This document shows, piece after piece, positions 1 through 4,389 of a stretch of DNA of 4,389 bases; the first letter of the stretch is position 1; the number at the start of each line of letters is the position of its first letter. Source of the stretch: a virus (Duplodnaviria; Heunggongvirae; Uroviricota; Caudoviricetes); the IMG/VR virus record IMGVR_UViG_2531839666_000025, positions 1 through 4,389 of that record, one strand, 5' to 3'. Position numbers and translations under genes: made by a program. The notes below the pieces were generated by a model. The model worked only from the letters and a program-made list of their open reading frames with translations, was not told the origin of the DNA and ran no database searches.

Positions 1-673
1 TTATTCCTGTGCCCAGCCAACCCTGTATGCCAGGATCTCATCCGCACTGCTCAGCGATTCCAGGTCCTTCTTCATGGTGCGCTGGCGAATGTGGATTTCC
101 ATCCCTTTAGTGAACATCGCCTGCTCTGCCGCTTCACTCAGCGCAATAAGCTCTTCTGCTGTCACCGGCACATCATTGTTTTCCGCATCCGTCCAGAAAA
201 ACGCCTCCGGCAGTTTCCCCGCTTTCGCTGCCGCCACCGACGGCTCAAGACGCGTCTGCGTTGACTTCCCGTAGTCCCATTTACGCCCATTGTGCTCAAA
301 CGTGTAGTTCGCCGCTTCCATCTCATTACGCCAGGCGTTAATTTCATCGCCCTTCATCCCGCGCGCTTTCTCCGCGGTCAGCAGGTCCGTGATTTTCTCC
401 CCGTCAAAAACCCCAGCGCCCCGAGATGTCAGCTTTGCGGTTTTCTTCCGTATCCGCCACCTCCACCACACTCTGGCCCACTGGCCACAGAACTGACGCC
501 ACCCTGCCGATGCCGGTAATGACTCCGGCACTGTTATAAACCACCTTCAGCGTCTCTGCTGAAAATAACGACTGACACTCATACCAGTCCTGACCATCCT
601 CTGATTTCAGGTACATCGCACCCGGCACATCCGGATTTTCCGGCGTGTATTGTCTGAAATTCTTTATGTGCAT
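1..673 (-). pseudogene. tfa: Tail fibre assembly protein (P2 gpG / Tfa chaperone family), reading frame broken by a 1-nt indel; intact equivalent would be about 223 aa
   Basis: Two overlapping minus-strand ORFs (673..404, 89 aa; 531..1, 176 aa) together resemble one Tfa. The first matches my recollection of the P2 gpG N-terminal region (SEDGQDWYE...KVVYNSAG...SVVEVADTEENRKADISGRWGF). The second matches the conserved C-terminal region of the tfa at 2905..3495 (INAWRNEME...RLEP...FFWTDAENNDV...). ATG at 673 is preceded by GGGAGGA with an 8-nt spacer; stop at 1..3. Confidence 0.75.
406..414 (-). other. Homopolymer tract (plus CCCC/AAAAA, minus TTTTTGGGG) where the tfa-1 frame switches
   Basis: Minus strand reads TGG GGT TTT TGA (W G F stop) in the upstream frame and GTT TTT GAC GGG GAG AAA (V F D G E K) in the downstream frame. 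Removing one T from the T5 run gives a continuous ...GRWGFDGEKITDLL... matching P2 gpG ...GKWMFKDGAVV... as I recall it. Confidence 0.7.
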
Positions 674-714
674 CTGTAAGTCCTCCCGGTTACATATCTG
701 ACAGGTGATGCGCT

Positions 715-2448
715 TTATAACGAAAAATACTCACGCCCCGGCGCTCCTGACGACACATACTCACCAACACCAACGGTGCGCCAGTGAGAGCCATCAAACG
801 TCATCTGCAGCGGCCTGTAGTAAATCGTTGTAACACGGCTGACGCCGCCCTGAGTGTTCCCCGAAAGCCCTGTAATGACTGAACCATCAGCCAGATTAAC
901 TGACCAGCCATGGTCCCCCTCCTGCAACTCATACGTTACCGGATTCCCCAGCCTGAAGCCCATGACACGACTCTTCCCGTCATCTCCTGATGCCCCCGGC
1001 GGCCCCATCGGCCCGGTTTCTCCACGCTCACCTCTGGGACCGGGGTCGCCTTTCTCCCCTTTCGGTCCCTGCGCTCCCCGCGGACCAGCGGGGCCTGTTG
1101 CTCCCGTTTCACCTTTCGGACCCTGTGCTCCGGGGTCGCCTTTCTCTCCTTTCGGACCGGGAACACCACCTCCTGCTGCAGCCTCTTCTGCCTTTGTTTT
1201 CGCTTCATTTGCCACATCCATTGCCGCCTTCACGGCCTTCGGCGTGGCTGCCTTTGTTTCGTCATTACTGCCAGTATCACTGCTTAACTGCACCACACCT
1301 TTCTGCGTCGTGCTGGCATCCCGCTGGCTGACCGTATCCGGTTTGTTTTTTGTGCTGTAATCCACCCGCCAGTGGAAATACTGTGTGTCGCCGTAAACCG
1401 TACAGGTACAGACCGTGCCATTAATAAACCCCGTTGCACCGTATTCGCCAATGGTGACCCGGACTATGGCAGCCTCATACGTCCCCATCACCTCAATGAC
1501 ACAGCCACCCAGATTGAGTTTTCCCGGTCCGACATCCGTGATGACTTTATTCATTGACGCAGGCAGTGATGCCTTCATCATCCAGTAAGGCTGGTCAAAT
1601 GCCCCTTTTTCTTTCAGCCAGGCGACAAACTCGCTCGTGGTCCATTCACCGGCCCCCGTATGAATGTCCCGCCCGTATACTCTGGCTGCTCCCACGGTGT
1701 TCAGAAACTTCACCTTATCCGGGATATCGTCACCGTTTTTCGCTTTCTCCAGGCATCCGTCCGCTTTGTCCATTGCCGCTTTCACCGCTTTCGGGGTGGC
1801 TGCCTTCGTTTCATCATCACTGTCCGTTGCGCTGCTTAACTGCACAATTCCCTTCTGTGCCGTCGTCGCATCCGGTCCTCCCGGCTCGCCTTTTTCGCCC
1901 TTCTCTCCCCGTTCACCTTTCACACCCTGAAGCCCCTGTGGTCCTGTCTCACCACGCTCACCCTTTGGCCCCCGCTCGCCGGTATCGCCTTTTGGCCCGG
2001 GAATACCCTGCGGCCCGGTGTCCCCCTTATCCCCCTTCGGTCCCCGCGCATTCTCTGCCCGTTTTTTTGCCTCCTCCGCACTGGCTGCGGACGCTTCCGC
2101 ACGTTTCAGGATTTCCGCTGCCACCGCTTCCAGCTCTGCAAGGGCTTTCGGGTAATACTGTGCGTCTTCCAGGTCCATCAGAAATTTATTCAGCGTTCCC
2201 GGTGCAGAATCCGCCTTCACCAGAATGTCACCCACATATGACGGCGCGTACCCTTCCGTGTTCAGCGTCACCCGGTACAACCCCGGCTCAACATCCATAC
2301 TGTAACTGCCGGTTTCCCCCGGCTGACCATACGCCACCGTGGTGACAATCACCGTCTCCGTTGTGCGGCGCGCTTTCAGCTCTATCGTGCATCCCGGTAC
2401 CGCTTTTCCCGTACCATCCTTCAGCACACCCGATATTCTGACTGTCAT
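715..2448 (-). CDS. stf: Side tail fibre protein, 577 aa: lambda Stf-like N-terminal domain, two collagen-like Gly-X-Y tracts, two tail-fibre repeat motifs, a central globular domain and a short C-terminal domain
   Basis: N-terminus [28 protein letters not shown] resembles lambda Stf [28 protein letters not shown] (from memory). Uninterrupted Gly-X-Y at aa 136-192 and 428-491. Motif [30 protein letters not shown] occurs twice (aa 196-228, 380-412). ATG at 2448..2446 preceded by GGGGGA; TAA at 717..715. Confidence 0.9.
976..1167 (-). repeat. Collagen-like Gly-X-Y coding tract 2 (about 21 triplets, stf aa 428-491)
   Basis: Translation [64 protein letters not shown] with Gly at every third position. 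The proline-rich plus-strand ORFs here are its antisense shadow. Confidence 0.9.
1213..1311 (-). repeat. Tail-fibre repeat motif, copy 2 (stf aa 380-412), a diverged direct repeat of 1765..1863
   Basis: [33 protein letters not shown]. At DNA level, ...ccattgccgccttcacggccttcggcgtggctgcctttgtttc... here parallels ...ccattgccgctttcaccgctttcggggtggctgccttcgtttc... in copy 1. Confidence 0.85.
1765..1863 (-). repeat. Tail-fibre repeat motif, copy 1 (stf aa 196-228)
   Basis: [33 protein letters not shown]; same motif as in lambda Stf ([28 protein letters not shown], from memory). Confidence 0.85.
1873..2043 (-). repeat. Collagen-like Gly-X-Y coding tract 1 (about 19 triplets, stf aa 136-192)
   Basis: Translation [57 protein letters not shown] with Gly at every third position. 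Confidence 0.9.
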
Positions 2449-2453
2449 GGATT

Positions 2454-2459
2454 TCCCCC
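2454..2459 (-). promoter_or_regulatory. Probable Shine-Dalgarno sequence of stf
   Basis: Minus strand GGGGGA followed by AATCC then ATG (2448). Confidence 0.5.
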
Positions 2460-2461
2460 AT

Positions 2462-2496
2462 AAAAAAACCGCAGTACCGGTTTCCCGGCCTGCGGT
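2462..2496 (-). terminator. Intrinsic (rho-independent) terminator, probable 3' end of the hok-like transcript
   Basis: Minus strand ACCGCAG-GCCGG-GAAA-CCGGuA-CUGCGGU followed by UUUUUUU: outer 7-bp stem, inner 4-bp CCGG/CCGG stem, GAAA tetraloop, then a T7 run. The T-tract ends 13 nt before the stf ATG. Confidence 0.7.
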
Positions 2497-2559
2497 AAAA
2501 TTTGTGGTTTGTTGGTGTTAAAACGGTGCCATCCGGCTGACCACCCTCAGCAACCGGTC

Positions 2560-2582
2560 GGCGGGGGATATTCTCCCCCGCC
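2560..2582. repeat. Perfect 9-bp GC-rich inverted repeat with a 5-nt loop, in the 3' untranslated region of the hok-like gene
   Basis: Plus strand GGCGGGGGA-TATTC-TCCCCCGCC (2560-2568 pairs with 2574-2582). No adjacent T-run on either strand, so it is more likely a structural or stability element than a terminator. Confidence 0.5.
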
Positions 2583-2590
2583 ACGGTTTC

Positions 2591-2731
2591 TTACTGCTTA
2601 CACTGTAAGAACGCCGCAATCTCCGCGCCCGCTATCCGGAACCGGAACTCGCACAGTGAACTGTGGGTGATCCAGATAATGAGCACTACCGTGATACAAA
2701 TCACGGTGGTTTTTAACGGTTTTTGCGACAT
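2591..2731 (-). CDS. hok: Hok/Gef-family type I toxin, 46 aa (small single-pass membrane peptide)
   Basis: Hand translation of the minus strand gives MSQKPLKTTVICITVVLIIWITHSSLCEFRFRIAGAEIAAFLQCKQ. It has a hydrophobic helix (TVICITVVLIIWIT) followed by the Hok hallmark SLCE..R.....E(I/V)AAF..(C/Y)K; compare R1 Hok ...[28 protein letters not shown], recalled from memory. ATG at 2731..2729 preceded by AAGGAG with a 9-nt spacer; TAA at 2593..2591. Not in the supplied ORF track. Confidence 0.8.
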   Translation of the reverse strand: MSQKPLKTTVICITVVLIIWITHSSLCEFRFRIAGAEIAAFLQCKQ

Positions 2732-2740
2732 AAACGCTTG

Positions 2741-2746
2741 CTCCTT
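2741..2746 (-). promoter_or_regulatory. Shine-Dalgarno sequence of hok (AAGGAG) with an adjacent anti-SD
   Basis: Minus strand CCUCUCC-GUAAAA-GGAG-CAAGCGUUU-AUG. The CUCC immediately upstream can pair with GGAG (plus-strand palindrome ctcc-ttttac-ggag, 2741..2754). Confidence 0.6.
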
Positions 2747-2876
2747 TTACGGAGAGGCGCTAACCTTTCACTTGCTTAGGATGAATGGTCAGGCCTCGGG
2801 TTAAACATGAATGTTTGTCCGGGGCCTTTTCACATCCGGCCTTCAGGTGTTCCCTCCGGCCATCAGCCAAAGGCAC

Positions 2877-2898
2877 CCGTGCATAATGTACGGTTTTT
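2877..2898 (+). terminator. Candidate plus-strand intrinsic terminator, possibly the 3' end of an antisense (Sok-like) RNA; speculative
   Basis: Plus strand CCGUGCA-UAA-UGUACGG (7-bp stem with one G-U pair, 3-nt loop) followed by UUUUUAUU. It lies antisense to the predicted hok leader, immediately beyond the tfa-2 stop. No convincing promoter found upstream. Confidence 0.3.
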
Positions 2899-2904
2899 AT
2901 TCTG

Positions 2905-3495
2905 TTACGTAAATACCGGCTCCTCACTCCCCCAGCCGGGCTGATAGCACAGTACATCACGGTATCGCGTCATCCCCGCAATCTCCTGTTTCATCTGTCG
3001 CTGTCTTTCGTGGATCCTGAAACCGTGCGCCACCATCGCCTGTTTCATGGCAACACCCAGCGCCTTCAGTTCATCAGCGTCTACCGCCACATCATGATTA
3101 TCCGCATCTGTCCAGAAAAAACGTTCCGGTAAATGTTCTGTCACTGCAAGCACGGGCTCCAGACGGCTCAGTGAGCGCTTACCTGCATCCCAGCGTCGCC
3201 CCTGCCATTCAAACACAATTTCTTTATTTTCTTCCTCATTTCTCCAGATGTTAATCCTGTCGCATGCCTTCTCTTTTTCCTTTTCCAGCATATCCTGACT
3301 TTCACGCCACGGTGTCACCGCTCCATACTGACCACCGGCAATGGCGGCAAACAGTTCACGCCATATCACATCGGGATCATGCGGCATCACAACGATATCC
3401 ATCCAGCACTCCCCCGACGGTAACTTCATTTCAGCATGAATGTTTCCGCTTTCGTCATACCTCGCATGACGGATTTCTGTAACGATCTCCGGCAC
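2905..3495 (-). CDS. tfa: Tail fibre assembly protein (Tfa chaperone family), 196 aa, apparently intact
   Basis: C-terminal two-thirds (DRINIWRNEEE...RLEPVLAVTEHLPERFFWTDADNHDVAVDADELKALG...) is paralogous to tfa-1; the N-terminal about 85 aa differs. GTG start at 3495..3493, 9 nt after the upstream stop, preceded by AAGGGGGG; TAA at 2907..2905. Confidence 0.88.
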   Translation of the reverse strand: MPEIVTEIRHARYDESGNIHAEMKLPSGECWMDIVVMPHDPDVIWRELFAAIAGGQYGAVTPWRESQDMLEKEKEKACDRINIWRNEEENKEIVFEWQGRRWDAGKRSLSRLEPVLAVTEHLPERFFWTDADNHDVAVDADELKALGVAMKQAMVAHGFRIHERQRQMKQEIAGMTRYRDVLCYQPGWGSEEPVFT

Positions 3496-3504
3496 AATCC
3501 CCCC

Positions 3505-4389
3505 TTAAAGCACATGAACCTTCTCATTTCCTGCCCGGAATAACGTGCCACCGTTACATAGAACGCTGATCGTCACGCGACAGTTATAATTCAGGGGGTT
3601 ATGAAAGGCGCGCACGTAACGATACCGGACATAAATCCGGTTGCGGTTTCCCCTCCCCTTTGCCGGAAGCGTGAATCTGTAAATCCAGTCATAATTTTCC
3701 CACACCTTATGCTTCAAATTCCCGGGCCCCCATTCTCCTGACGACCAGACAGTGGCAATTCCACCATCTGCACTATCAGTGCCGACACTGACTTCCCACC
3801 AGGCAGAAACAAGACCAGGATTGCCCTCAGCTCTGAAGGCTATCTTCATGTTAACATCAAAAAAACGATCGAAGTTTTCCCCGTCAACATTCAGAAAAGG
3901 GATCCATTCGTTATCTCTCTCCTTTACACCATCCCGTGAGCTGACACCACTGAACACAACTTTATTGATTTCAAACAGGGAGCGGTAATAAACATCGCCA
4001 AGAATATTACCGGCATCCACTGTTCCTTTAACGACGCAGTTTTCTGCAATGGTCACGTTATTCAGCGTGCCCGAGTTCGCACTGATATGTCCGCTGATGT
4101 CCGCATTACGGGCCGTCAGCCTGCCGTCCGGCGTCAGGGAGAACGTCGGGGGATTGCCGGACGAGGTGATGCTCACCGCAAACAACCGCTTCAGGAACAC
4201 ATCGTTCATGAACAGCTGATTCCCCTGCGCCACAAACAGCGGCGTGGTGTTGCCGTTCTCCGGGTTAATCATCGCGATACGGTCCGCCTGCAGCAGTATA
4301 TTGCTCAGGGGCTGGCCATCAGCATCCTCAATCCCCGCACCTATACCGGCAACATACGGAATGCCGTTTTTTGTTTCTGCACCTTCAGC
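3505..4389 (-). CDS. J: Host specificity / central tail fibre protein (lambda gpJ-like), C-terminal 294 codons; N-terminus lies beyond the window
   Basis: The frame is open from the window edge ([17 protein letters not shown]...) through the track ORF to TAA at 3507..3505. The segment [22 protein letters not shown]...[38 protein letters not shown] matches my recollection of lambda J ([18 protein letters not shown]...[41 protein letters not shown]). The last about 190 aa do not resemble the lambda J C-terminus. Confidence 0.8.

Follow-up and report, generated by a model that had tools for sequence, protein, structure and literature searches.

A 5'-3' fold-back of the hok mRNA probably accounts for the inverted repeat that brackets a mok-less, phage-borne toxin gene

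The hok mRNA of plasmid R1 carries a 5' element, tac, that pairs with the 3' element fbi when the transcript is full-length and with the internal box ucb when it is truncated (PMC9841398, PMC3851714). As these two papers summarize the matter, the tac-fbi fold-back goes back to Thisted 1995 and to Franch, Gultyaev and Gerdes 1997; a fold-back supported by covariation defines the hok mRNA family according to Gultyaev, Franch and Gerdes 1997, as cited in PMC1635323 and taken up in PMC9841398. Here we describe a phage-borne relative of this system. It is found in a stretch of 4,389 nucleotides (nt), hereafter called the window, which comprises positions 1 to 4,389 of the IMG/VR record IMGVR_UViG_2531839666_000025 (Caudoviricetes) and in which an imperfect inverted repeat brackets a short open reading frame (ORF) for a Hok/Gef-type toxin. 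Long-distance interactions between the 5' and 3' ends have also been reported for AapA/IsoA of H. pylori, dinQ, tisB and other type I toxin mRNAs (PMC6733600, PMC5066626, PMC8594479), and the T1TAdb database, which annotates toxin mRNAs, Hok/Sok included, has such interactions among its descriptors (PMC8594479). The likeness of these latter systems to the locus considered here is one of logic only, namely an end-paired, inert primary transcript that nucleolytic processing turns into a translatable, antitoxin-sensitive form; their sequences and toxins are unrelated, and several of them are activated by 5' processing.

The two arms of the inverted repeat in the window very probably represent the 5' end and a segment of the 3' untranslated region (UTR) of the hok mRNA, pairing with each other as a fold-back of the tac/fbi type. 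Our computations show that this pairing is thermodynamically dominant, that it is kept in every homologue examined, that it is accompanied by compensatory changes, and that it is a property of the sense strand only. In common with the hok/sok (parB) locus of R1, the window possesses a Hok/Gef toxin ORF, a G-rich 5' element with two alternative partners, a 3'-UTR element in the closed form and a box upstream of a GAGG motif in the open form (with one nt of the 5' element unpaired), a very stable GC hairpin that separates the stop codon from the 3' element, a terminator further downstream, and a long-range helix supported by covariation; its leader also holds a putative antisense gene, whose -35/17-nt/-10 boxes occupy the corresponding position and which would end in a terminator hairpin. 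It differs from R1 in the length of the toxin (46 versus 52 amino acids; aa), in its location as a moron in the tail-fibre region of a prophage instead of a plasmid stability locus, in the distance of 28 nt between the 3' element and the terminator, and in the lack of mok, so that neither Sok nor the fold-back can act via mok translation. The R1 3' element lies nearly adjacent to the terminator; trimming would thus have to remove roughly 80-95 nt here, compared with 39 nt in R1. The fold-back is of a known kind, and the absence of mok is the one real departure.

The repeat had initially been noticed in a sequence-only reading of the window, which placed it at 2525-2540 and 2863-2877 and likened it to the fold-back of hok mRNAs. 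A search for the pattern TCAGCC-N(2-5)-GGCACC returned exactly two sites, one per strand, at precisely these places (expected count of 0.01, from 200 shuffles). The 25 longest pairs returned by a generic inverted-repeat finder do not include this repeat. The sites, and the RNA arms to which they belong, are as follows:

2525-2540, minus strand: pattern site, TCAGCCGGATGGCACC (plus-strand letters ggtgccatccggctga)
2863-2877, plus strand: pattern site, TCAGCCAAAGGCACC (plus-strand letters tcagccaaaggcacc)
2862-2878, minus strand: 5' arm (tac equivalent), GGGUGCCUUUGGCUGAU, nt 1-17 of the hok mRNA
2525-2541, minus strand: 3' arm (fbi equivalent), GUCAGCCGGAUGGCACC

The arms enclose the hok ORF, are separated by about 323 nt, where the initial description had given about 320 nt, and pair with each other in the predicted fold of the minus-strand transcript. 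As RNA, the pairing is longer than first described, as it joins nt 2-17 of the mRNA (2877-2862) with 2525-2541 through 16 pairs; the extended helix includes U-A, U·G and U·G pairs and leaves U2531 bulged. The 5' arm begins 1 nt after the putative transcription start.

That a match of this size might arise by chance had been cautioned from the outset, and for an arbitrary repeat the caution holds: an interrupted 6+6 inverted repeat of some kind is present in 15% of dinucleotide shuffles of 2440-2970. For this particular repeat the caution fails. Its 3' segment is the best partner anywhere downstream for the first 20 nt of the transcript (-31.2 kcal/mol), a value that no more than 4 of 1000 shuffles reach, the pairing involves the very 5' end of the transcript, and it is present in all 97 homologous transcripts, with compensatory changes. 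A mere coincidence in a G+C-rich stretch of 450 nt is therefore excluded by conservation and covariation, and its remaining probability is practically negligible.

The limits of the transcript that would carry the two arms can be placed with the following features:

2885-2913, minus strand: putative hok promoter, from conservation
2913-2908, minus strand: hok -35 box, TTTACG, overlapping the last codons of the tfa-like gene
2890-2885, minus strand: hok -10 box, TACATT, 17-nt spacer from the -35 box and 6 nt to G2878
2731-2591, minus strand: Hok/Gef ORF, 46 aa, AUG at 2731, stop codon ending at 2591
2746-2741, minus strand: strong hok Shine-Dalgarno sequence, AAGGAG, 9 nt before the AUG
2462-2496, minus strand: intrinsic terminator, hairpin 2496-2469 and U tract 2468-2462, present in the full-length fold

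A -10 box of the form TAnAnT sits 6 nt before GGGTGCC in almost every context examined (the sole exception is locus L095), and a TTGnnn -35 box is found 17 nt further upstream in most of them. The similarity of the window to other contexts starts only at about 2898, within the promoter spacer, and the -35 box of the window is therefore supplied by the end of the tfa-like gene. A sigma-70 consensus scan of 2400-3000 flagged no promoter; hence, conservation is the argument both for the hok promoter and for that of the Sok-like RNA considered below. At the opposite end, the terminator begins 28 nt past the 3' arm and just ahead of the start codon of the stf-like gene at 2448, and in most clades it is found 25-35 nt downstream of the 3' arm and ends about 60-70 nt downstream of it. 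A start at about 2878 and a termination at 2496-2462, with the end at about 2462, would yield a primary hok transcript of about 415 nt. The idea that the 3' arm is itself a part of the terminator was rejected, as the terminator forms a hairpin of its own, 28 nt beyond that arm.

The comparative analysis draws on 217 loci from viral contigs, from contigs encoding Serratia, Yersinia and Salmonella proteins, from E. coli chromosomes and from contigs of species-representative genomes, the latter contributing 4 loci through a DNA-pattern scan; 97 distinct transcripts and 47 distinct end pairs were drawn from them. In the minimum free energy (MFE) structures of these transcripts, the fold-back is present in 97 of 97 cases (at least 10 of the first 19 nt paired to the last 30 nt, with a median of 15). 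Two alignments were used: A2 is ungapped, anchored at the ends and comprises 42 distinct end pairs, while A3 is a MAFFT/RNAalifold alignment of 21 full-length transcripts with less than 93% identity. On A2, 87.5% of the cells of the proposed 17-pair helix are paired, in comparison with 36-51% after a shift of the 3' side by 1-3 columns. Double-sided changes affect 10 of the 17 pairs, with 108 such cells versus 42 ± 5 in shuffles (none of 500 reaches 108), and cognate 5' and 3' partners are predicted to pair at -26.1 kcal/mol versus -23.3 kcal/mol for swapped ones (permutation p ~1.5e-4), both statistics being derived from shuffles that ignore the relatedness of the sequences. On A3, and without any prior structure, RNAalifold pairs columns 1-7 with 381-387 and columns 10-13 with 374-377, and the latter pairs exhibit 8-11 double-sided changes each. 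Single-sequence folding, the de novo consensus and the compensatory changes at homologous loci all agree on the 5'-3' fold-back architecture that had been suggested for the hok mRNA.

In the inner arm of this helix, the sequence changes from clade to clade and complementarity is kept:

5' GGCUGAU with 3' GUCAGCC: window type
5' CGGCUGA with 3' UCAGCCG: Stx phages, with one added C:G pair
5' UUUCGGCU with 3' GGCCG(A)UAA, GGUCG(A)AAA or GGCUG(A)AAA: P2-like prophages
5' CGACGC with 3' GCG(A)UCG: Salmonella-type
5' CGAUGC with 3' (AC)A(A)UCG: Salmonella-type
5' CGACU with 3' GGUCG
5' GGAGCUG with 3' UAGC(U)UUC: distant hok of 53 aa

One homologue (L065) carries a duplication of about 43 nt in the hok 3' UTR that spans the GC hairpin and the following GGUUG segment; the 3' arm thereby comes to lie 106 nt from the stop codon instead of about 65 nt, and both arms of the fold-back are intact.

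Folding of the complete transcript, as proposed along with the original description of the repeat, results in an MFE structure of -185.4 kcal/mol (z = -8.5) that includes the fold-back, with pair probabilities of the arms between 0.81 and 1.0. The additional elements that take part in the predicted refolding of the RNA are:

2821-2829, minus strand: internal box (ucb equivalent), AAAGGCCCC, alternative partner of the 5' arm
2794-2797, minus strand: conserved GAGG, present in nearly every member and placed where R1 has the mok Shine-Dalgarno sequence
2560-2582, minus strand: GC hairpin of the 3' UTR, GGCGGGGGA-GAAUA-UCCCCCGCC, nine pairs, 8 of them G-C

When the RNA is truncated at 2545, so that the 3' arm is missing, the 5' end moves in the MFE structure onto the internal box at 2829-2821; G1-G3 and G5-U10 pair with the AAAGGCCCC box, and U4 is bulged. 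In the 21 homologues, this ucb pairing is formed in 94% of the cells, and nt 10 and 11 of tac show changes on both sides with the ucb box in 7 sequences each; these two positions covary with both partners, fbi and ucb. The tac-ucb stem of the truncated fold is the outer helix of the consensus of the Rfam family RF01794 ("sok"), which is matched on the hok-sense strand by 2878-2720 over the full model (1-157; 55 bits, E = 1.2e-10, gathering score 59); this consensus opens with GGGUGCUU, and model position 1 is aligned to G2878. The truncated fold also contains a new hairpin, formed by the pairing of GAGGCC (from about 2797) with GCGCCUC, whose loop and upper stem consist of a variable patch at 2789-2766. 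GAGG is paired with the GGCC of the ucb region in the full-length fold and with GCGCCUC in the truncated one, and its unpaired probability falls from 0.25 to 0.03 upon removal of the 3' arm. The GC hairpin at 2582-2560 is part of the consensus structure, with 3-5 double-sided changes per pair (columns 321-351), and is a likely stop point for 3' trimming.

A further helix is predicted between the hok start region AUGUCGCAA (2722-2730) and UUGCGGCGU (2608-2616), both on the minus strand, the latter lying within the codons for the conserved AAF motif. It corresponds to A3 columns 154-162 with 269-277, is fully conserved in the 21 homologues and is present in both the closed and the truncated folds; as both of its sides are coding, conservation alone cannot prove that this helix is a structural element.

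The arms are predicted to form a 16-bp helix that closes the whole full-length RNA and corresponds to the tac/fbi stem of R1. Along the lines of the R1 paradigm (PMC9841398), this closed form would be stable, and both its translation and its binding by the antisense RNA would be poor. A 3' exonuclease would then, again as in R1, slowly trim the RNA as far as the GC hairpin at 2582-2560 and so remove the terminator, the spacer and the 3' arm. With the 3' arm gone, the 5' arm is predicted to switch to the internal box at 2829-2821 and the leader to refold, so that the variable region, presumed to be the Sok target, is presented on a new hairpin. If the analogy to R1 extends to the last step, the refolded RNA would be either bound by a Sok-like RNA and destroyed or, if Sok is gone, translated into a membrane toxin. 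The notion of an mRNA held inert by the fold-back up to the time of 3' processing is carried over from R1 to a subfamily that lacks mok.

A search of the window and the homologous leaders for a mok frame found none in this subfamily, in which no start codon follows GAGG. In the window, and in 37 of the 57 distinct leaders listed, the interval from GAGG to the hok AUG contains stop codons in each of the three frames; a more distant hok gene (the 'far' copy at locus L039) has a mok-like frame whose final AUGA lies at the start of hok. The locus is a mok-less relative of the R1 system, a member of the family by homology of its toxin and mRNA and not by the three-gene definition derived from R1. 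In the absence of a mok frame, translational gating, if any, has to work through the Shine-Dalgarno sequence and the AUG of hok itself, and the textbook route from Sok via mok to hok cannot apply to these cassettes.

Several observations weigh against the interpretation of the arms as a regulatory fold-back. The outer 7 bp (GGGUGCC/GGCACCC) are near-invariant and therefore do not covary; the outer arm served to anchor the homologues, so that its conservation in the alignments is partly by construction; the structure evaluated on A2 had been derived by eye from those very sequences; and a few homologues (L045, with G3A, as well as L094 and L038) carry uncompensated changes in the outer helix. 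We infer the start, the end and the 3' trimming of the transcript, and the score of the RF01794 match falls short of the gathering score of that family. The mok gene, through which gating occurs in R1, is absent here. Furthermore, the predicted unpaired probability of the hok Shine-Dalgarno sequence changes little, from 0.33 in the closed to 0.43 in the truncated RNA, and the hok AUG stays paired in a long-range helix in both folds; translational gating is therefore not evident from thermodynamics. Neither the anchoring nor the choices made by eye affect the control with slid registers, the structure predicted de novo or the exchange of the inner arm from clade to clade.

The pairing could also be real and yet serve chiefly to protect the RNA against exonucleases or to insulate it from late-operon read-through, with expression being set by an anti-Shine-Dalgarno hairpin and Sok. 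Such a role would fit the lack of a mok frame and the fact that the hok Shine-Dalgarno sequence is sequestered by a conserved local CCUCUCC element and the AUG by the long-range helix, both of which persist in the truncated fold; it would also fit the position of the cassette in the strand sense of the tail genes, in the interval between the tfa-like and the stf-like gene, and the R1 literature credits the fold-back with mRNA stability as well (PMC9841398). We nevertheless regard this explanation as distinctly unlikely, since the 5' arm has a conserved and covarying alternative partner in the ucb equivalent, and since removal of the 3' arm refolds the entire leader and buries GAGG, which is the signature of a switch and not that of a static clamp.

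A more specific version of the fold-back interpretation is possible, though unlikely: in the mok-less subfamily, the fold-back might set the access directly to the hok Shine-Dalgarno sequence and AUG and to the Sok-target hairpin, and read-through might provide a toxin route that is specific to prophage induction. Antiterminated read-through of the late operon upon induction would bury the 5' arm within a longer RNA that has no free 3' end nearby. In line with such an induction route, a hok of an Stx phage has been reported to help lysis and phage release (PMC8621323).

Is the repeat recognized as RNA or as DNA? On the hok-sense strand, 87.5% of the cells pair, with 10.6% G·U, while the corresponding values for the complementary strand are 78.4% and 1.5%. 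G·U pairs are thus tolerated on the sense strand only, which indicates that the constraint acts on the minus-strand RNA and not on the DNA. A DNA cruciform or a recombination site was rejected because of this strand asymmetry.

The sequence-only reading had also considered that the arms might be the ends of a small inserted element that carries the toxin. In this case, they would be the terminal inverted repeats of a unit resembling an insertion sequence (IS) or a miniature inverted-repeat transposable element (MITE) and would be recognized as DNA by a transposase or recombinase. The unit of promoter, hok and terminator is indeed mobile, as it is found after J, after lom (Stx phages), after the tfa-like gene (window), after ogr (P2-like prophages) and before com (Mu-like prophages); tandem copies of the cassette occur (L033), and on the 3' side the similarity between the most distant contexts stops no more than about 4 nt past the arm. 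The conserved unit, however, runs past both arms. Similarity between contexts reaches 20-35 nt upstream of the 5' arm, over the promoter, so that the -10 box 6 nt upstream, and usually also the -35 box, travel with the unit; the terminator 25-35 nt downstream of the 3' arm belongs to it in most clades; and the upstream junction of the window, at about 2898, lies in the promoter spacer and not at the 5' arm. Neither is a transposase present, nor were direct duplications seen by inspection, in lieu of a formal search, on the flanks of 2878 and 2525 in the window and in other contexts. The replacement of the inner arm between clades with retention of complementarity, and of G·U pairs on one strand only, is the pattern to be expected of an RNA and not of a protein-bound DNA site.

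Phages without hok at this position offer an additional view on the insertion boundaries, and their breakpoints do not coincide with the arms. In phage PhiR12_5 (PV340554.1, L219 1440-1600), the interior of hok is deleted, while both outer arms, the promoter and the terminator are kept. The scar reads promoter-GGGTGCCTTTGACTGACGGCACCC-spacer-terminator, followed by stf; GGGTGCCTTTGACTGACGGCACCC represents the first 19 nt of the mRNA fused to the last 5 nt of the 3' arm and leaves a 7-bp hairpin. Phage PhiR5_1 (PV340545.1, L220 760-960) carries lom in the J-stf slot that is filled by hok in phage 1720a-02, and its similarity to the window resumes at about 2474, within the terminator. Given these data, terminal repeats of a transposable element are a very improbable explanation. 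The mobility of the cassette is that of a phage "moron", and the arms are not the ends of this unit. Hok and lom appear to be interchangeable morons at the J-stf position; the 3' half of the lom terminator of PhiR5_1 and the stf ribosome-binding region are common to the window (2474-2449).

Cassette arrays and disrupted copies were also encountered among the homologues. Locus L033 harbors three tandem hok cassettes (342-695, 836-1190 and 1335-1710), and two or three tandem copies are likewise present at L035, L039, L092 and L119; each copy has its own promoter, arms and terminator, and neighbours in an array are distinguished by their inner arms and by the variable hairpin of the leader. At L061 (141-1391), an IS3-family insertion with an orfA of 112 aa and an orfB of 272 aa with transposase-like sequence is located in the hok leader of a Stx phage and parts the 5' arm and the promoter from the rest of the cassette. 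The enterobacterial hok coding pattern was found on two contigs assigned to Firmicutes, L096 (2370-2389; a metagenome-assembled genome of the Planococcaceae) and L098 (6063-6082; a Vagococcus isolate), the latter with a complete P2-type cassette; both probably represent assembly contamination rather than transfer.

The leader of the window hok gene further contains, on the opposite strand, the layout of a Sok-like antisense gene:

2738-2830, plus strand: putative Sok-like antisense RNA gene, RNA from about 2774
2738-2743, plus strand: Sok-like -35 box, TTGCTC, followed by a 17-nt spacer
2761-2766, plus strand: Sok-like -10 box, TAACCT
2791-2827, plus strand: Sok-like terminator hairpin, with U tract 2827-2830 (-21.5 kcal/mol, z = -2.65)
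2766-2789, minus strand: hypervariable leader hairpin, nt 90-113 of the hok mRNA, presumed Sok recognition region

The complement of the Sok-like -10 box (AGGTTA) and the position of the -35 box (TTGnnn-17-TAACCT on the plus strand) are conserved across clades. Among 21 otherwise near-identical cassettes of the window type, variation is concentrated in the hairpin at 2766-2789, of which five alleles exist, each of them keeping the stem through paired changes. This variable patch coincides in part with what is presumed to be the 5' tail of the Sok-like RNA and with the stretch that directly follows the Sok-like -10 box. A second patch with two alleles (GGAUGUGAAAAGG or GGAAAGACGAAGG) is found at 2826-2834, just upstream of the internal box. 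The diversification of the hairpin suggests that toxin-antitoxin recognition has been diverging between co-resident copies.

All genes of the window are encoded on its minus strand. In addition to hok, these are:

4272-3505, minus strand: tail fibre, C-terminal part
3495-2905, minus strand: tfa-like assembly gene, stop codon 2907-2905
2448-715, minus strand: stf-like side tail fibre with collagen-like repeats, start codon at 2448
673-1, minus strand: second tfa-like gene, split

The hok cassette is thus placed on the same strand as the tail genes, with the tfa-like gene on one side and the stf-like gene on the other. Its 46-aa ORF matches the Pfam family PF01848 (HOK_GEF) with 43.5 bits (cut-off 22; E = 2.4e-11), NCBI records name relatives with 93-98% identity as Hok/Gef family protein, and an identical (100%) Hok product is encoded on 12 viral contigs. 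The region is matched in 1,530 of 5,426 complete E. coli genomes; phage 1720a-02 matches it at 98.7%, and the J-stf interval is the position of the cassette in this phage, in strain SMBL and in most close relatives. The second tfa-like gene consists of two overlapping minus-strand frames (673-404 and 531-1), and its C-terminal part shares 47% identity with the intact copy of the tfa-like gene at 3495-2905; a frameshift around 404-531, reflecting either a pseudogene or a sequencing error, is probable. In the stf-like gene (715-2448), collagen-like Gly-X-Y repeats form two blocks; part of the gene is also duplicated internally, in that a 13-residue motif and the preceding Q(K)G(I/V)VQLSS each occur twice.

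Among the phage-borne relatives, the cassette of the Stx phages, which follows lom in phages of the VT2-Sakai/Sp5 type and carries the annotation 'Hok/Gef family protein' or 'MokW-like host killing', has a nucleotide identity of about 77-78% over 2898-2521, and the similarity ends at 2521, 4 nt past the 3' arm. It possesses the same ends (5' GGGUGCCUUU and 3' GGCACC), the same leader architecture and a 46-aa Hok protein with 65% identity, and it likewise has no conserved mok start codon, with stops in all three frames in most variants. It differs from the window by an extra C:G pair in the inner arm (CGGCUGA/UCAGCCG), by an internal loop that reads AUAU instead of GGAU, and by the lack of a terminator after the 3' arm in the Stx clade. 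This cassette may correspond to the hokW-sokW locus that Takada et al. 2021 (PMC8621323) described, although HokW is given there as 51 aa, against 46 aa for the ORF aligned here. For hokW-sokW, a toxin-antitoxin function and shorter hokW RNAs have been described, and the paper describes neither a fold-back nor mok (PMC8621323).

Since the repeat is very probably a functional RNA feature and not the scar of a mobile element, the unit of about 415 nt can be annotated as a single regulated toxin transcript. The general picture of hok regulation is left unchanged by these findings; they extend the tac/fbi/ucb switch, with covariation support, from the hok loci of plasmids and of K-12 to a large family of phage-borne cassettes that occur in Escherichia, Salmonella, Serratia and Yersinia. 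That near-identical cassettes differ almost only in the hairpin that is probably the Sok site suggests selection against cross-talk between co-resident copies.

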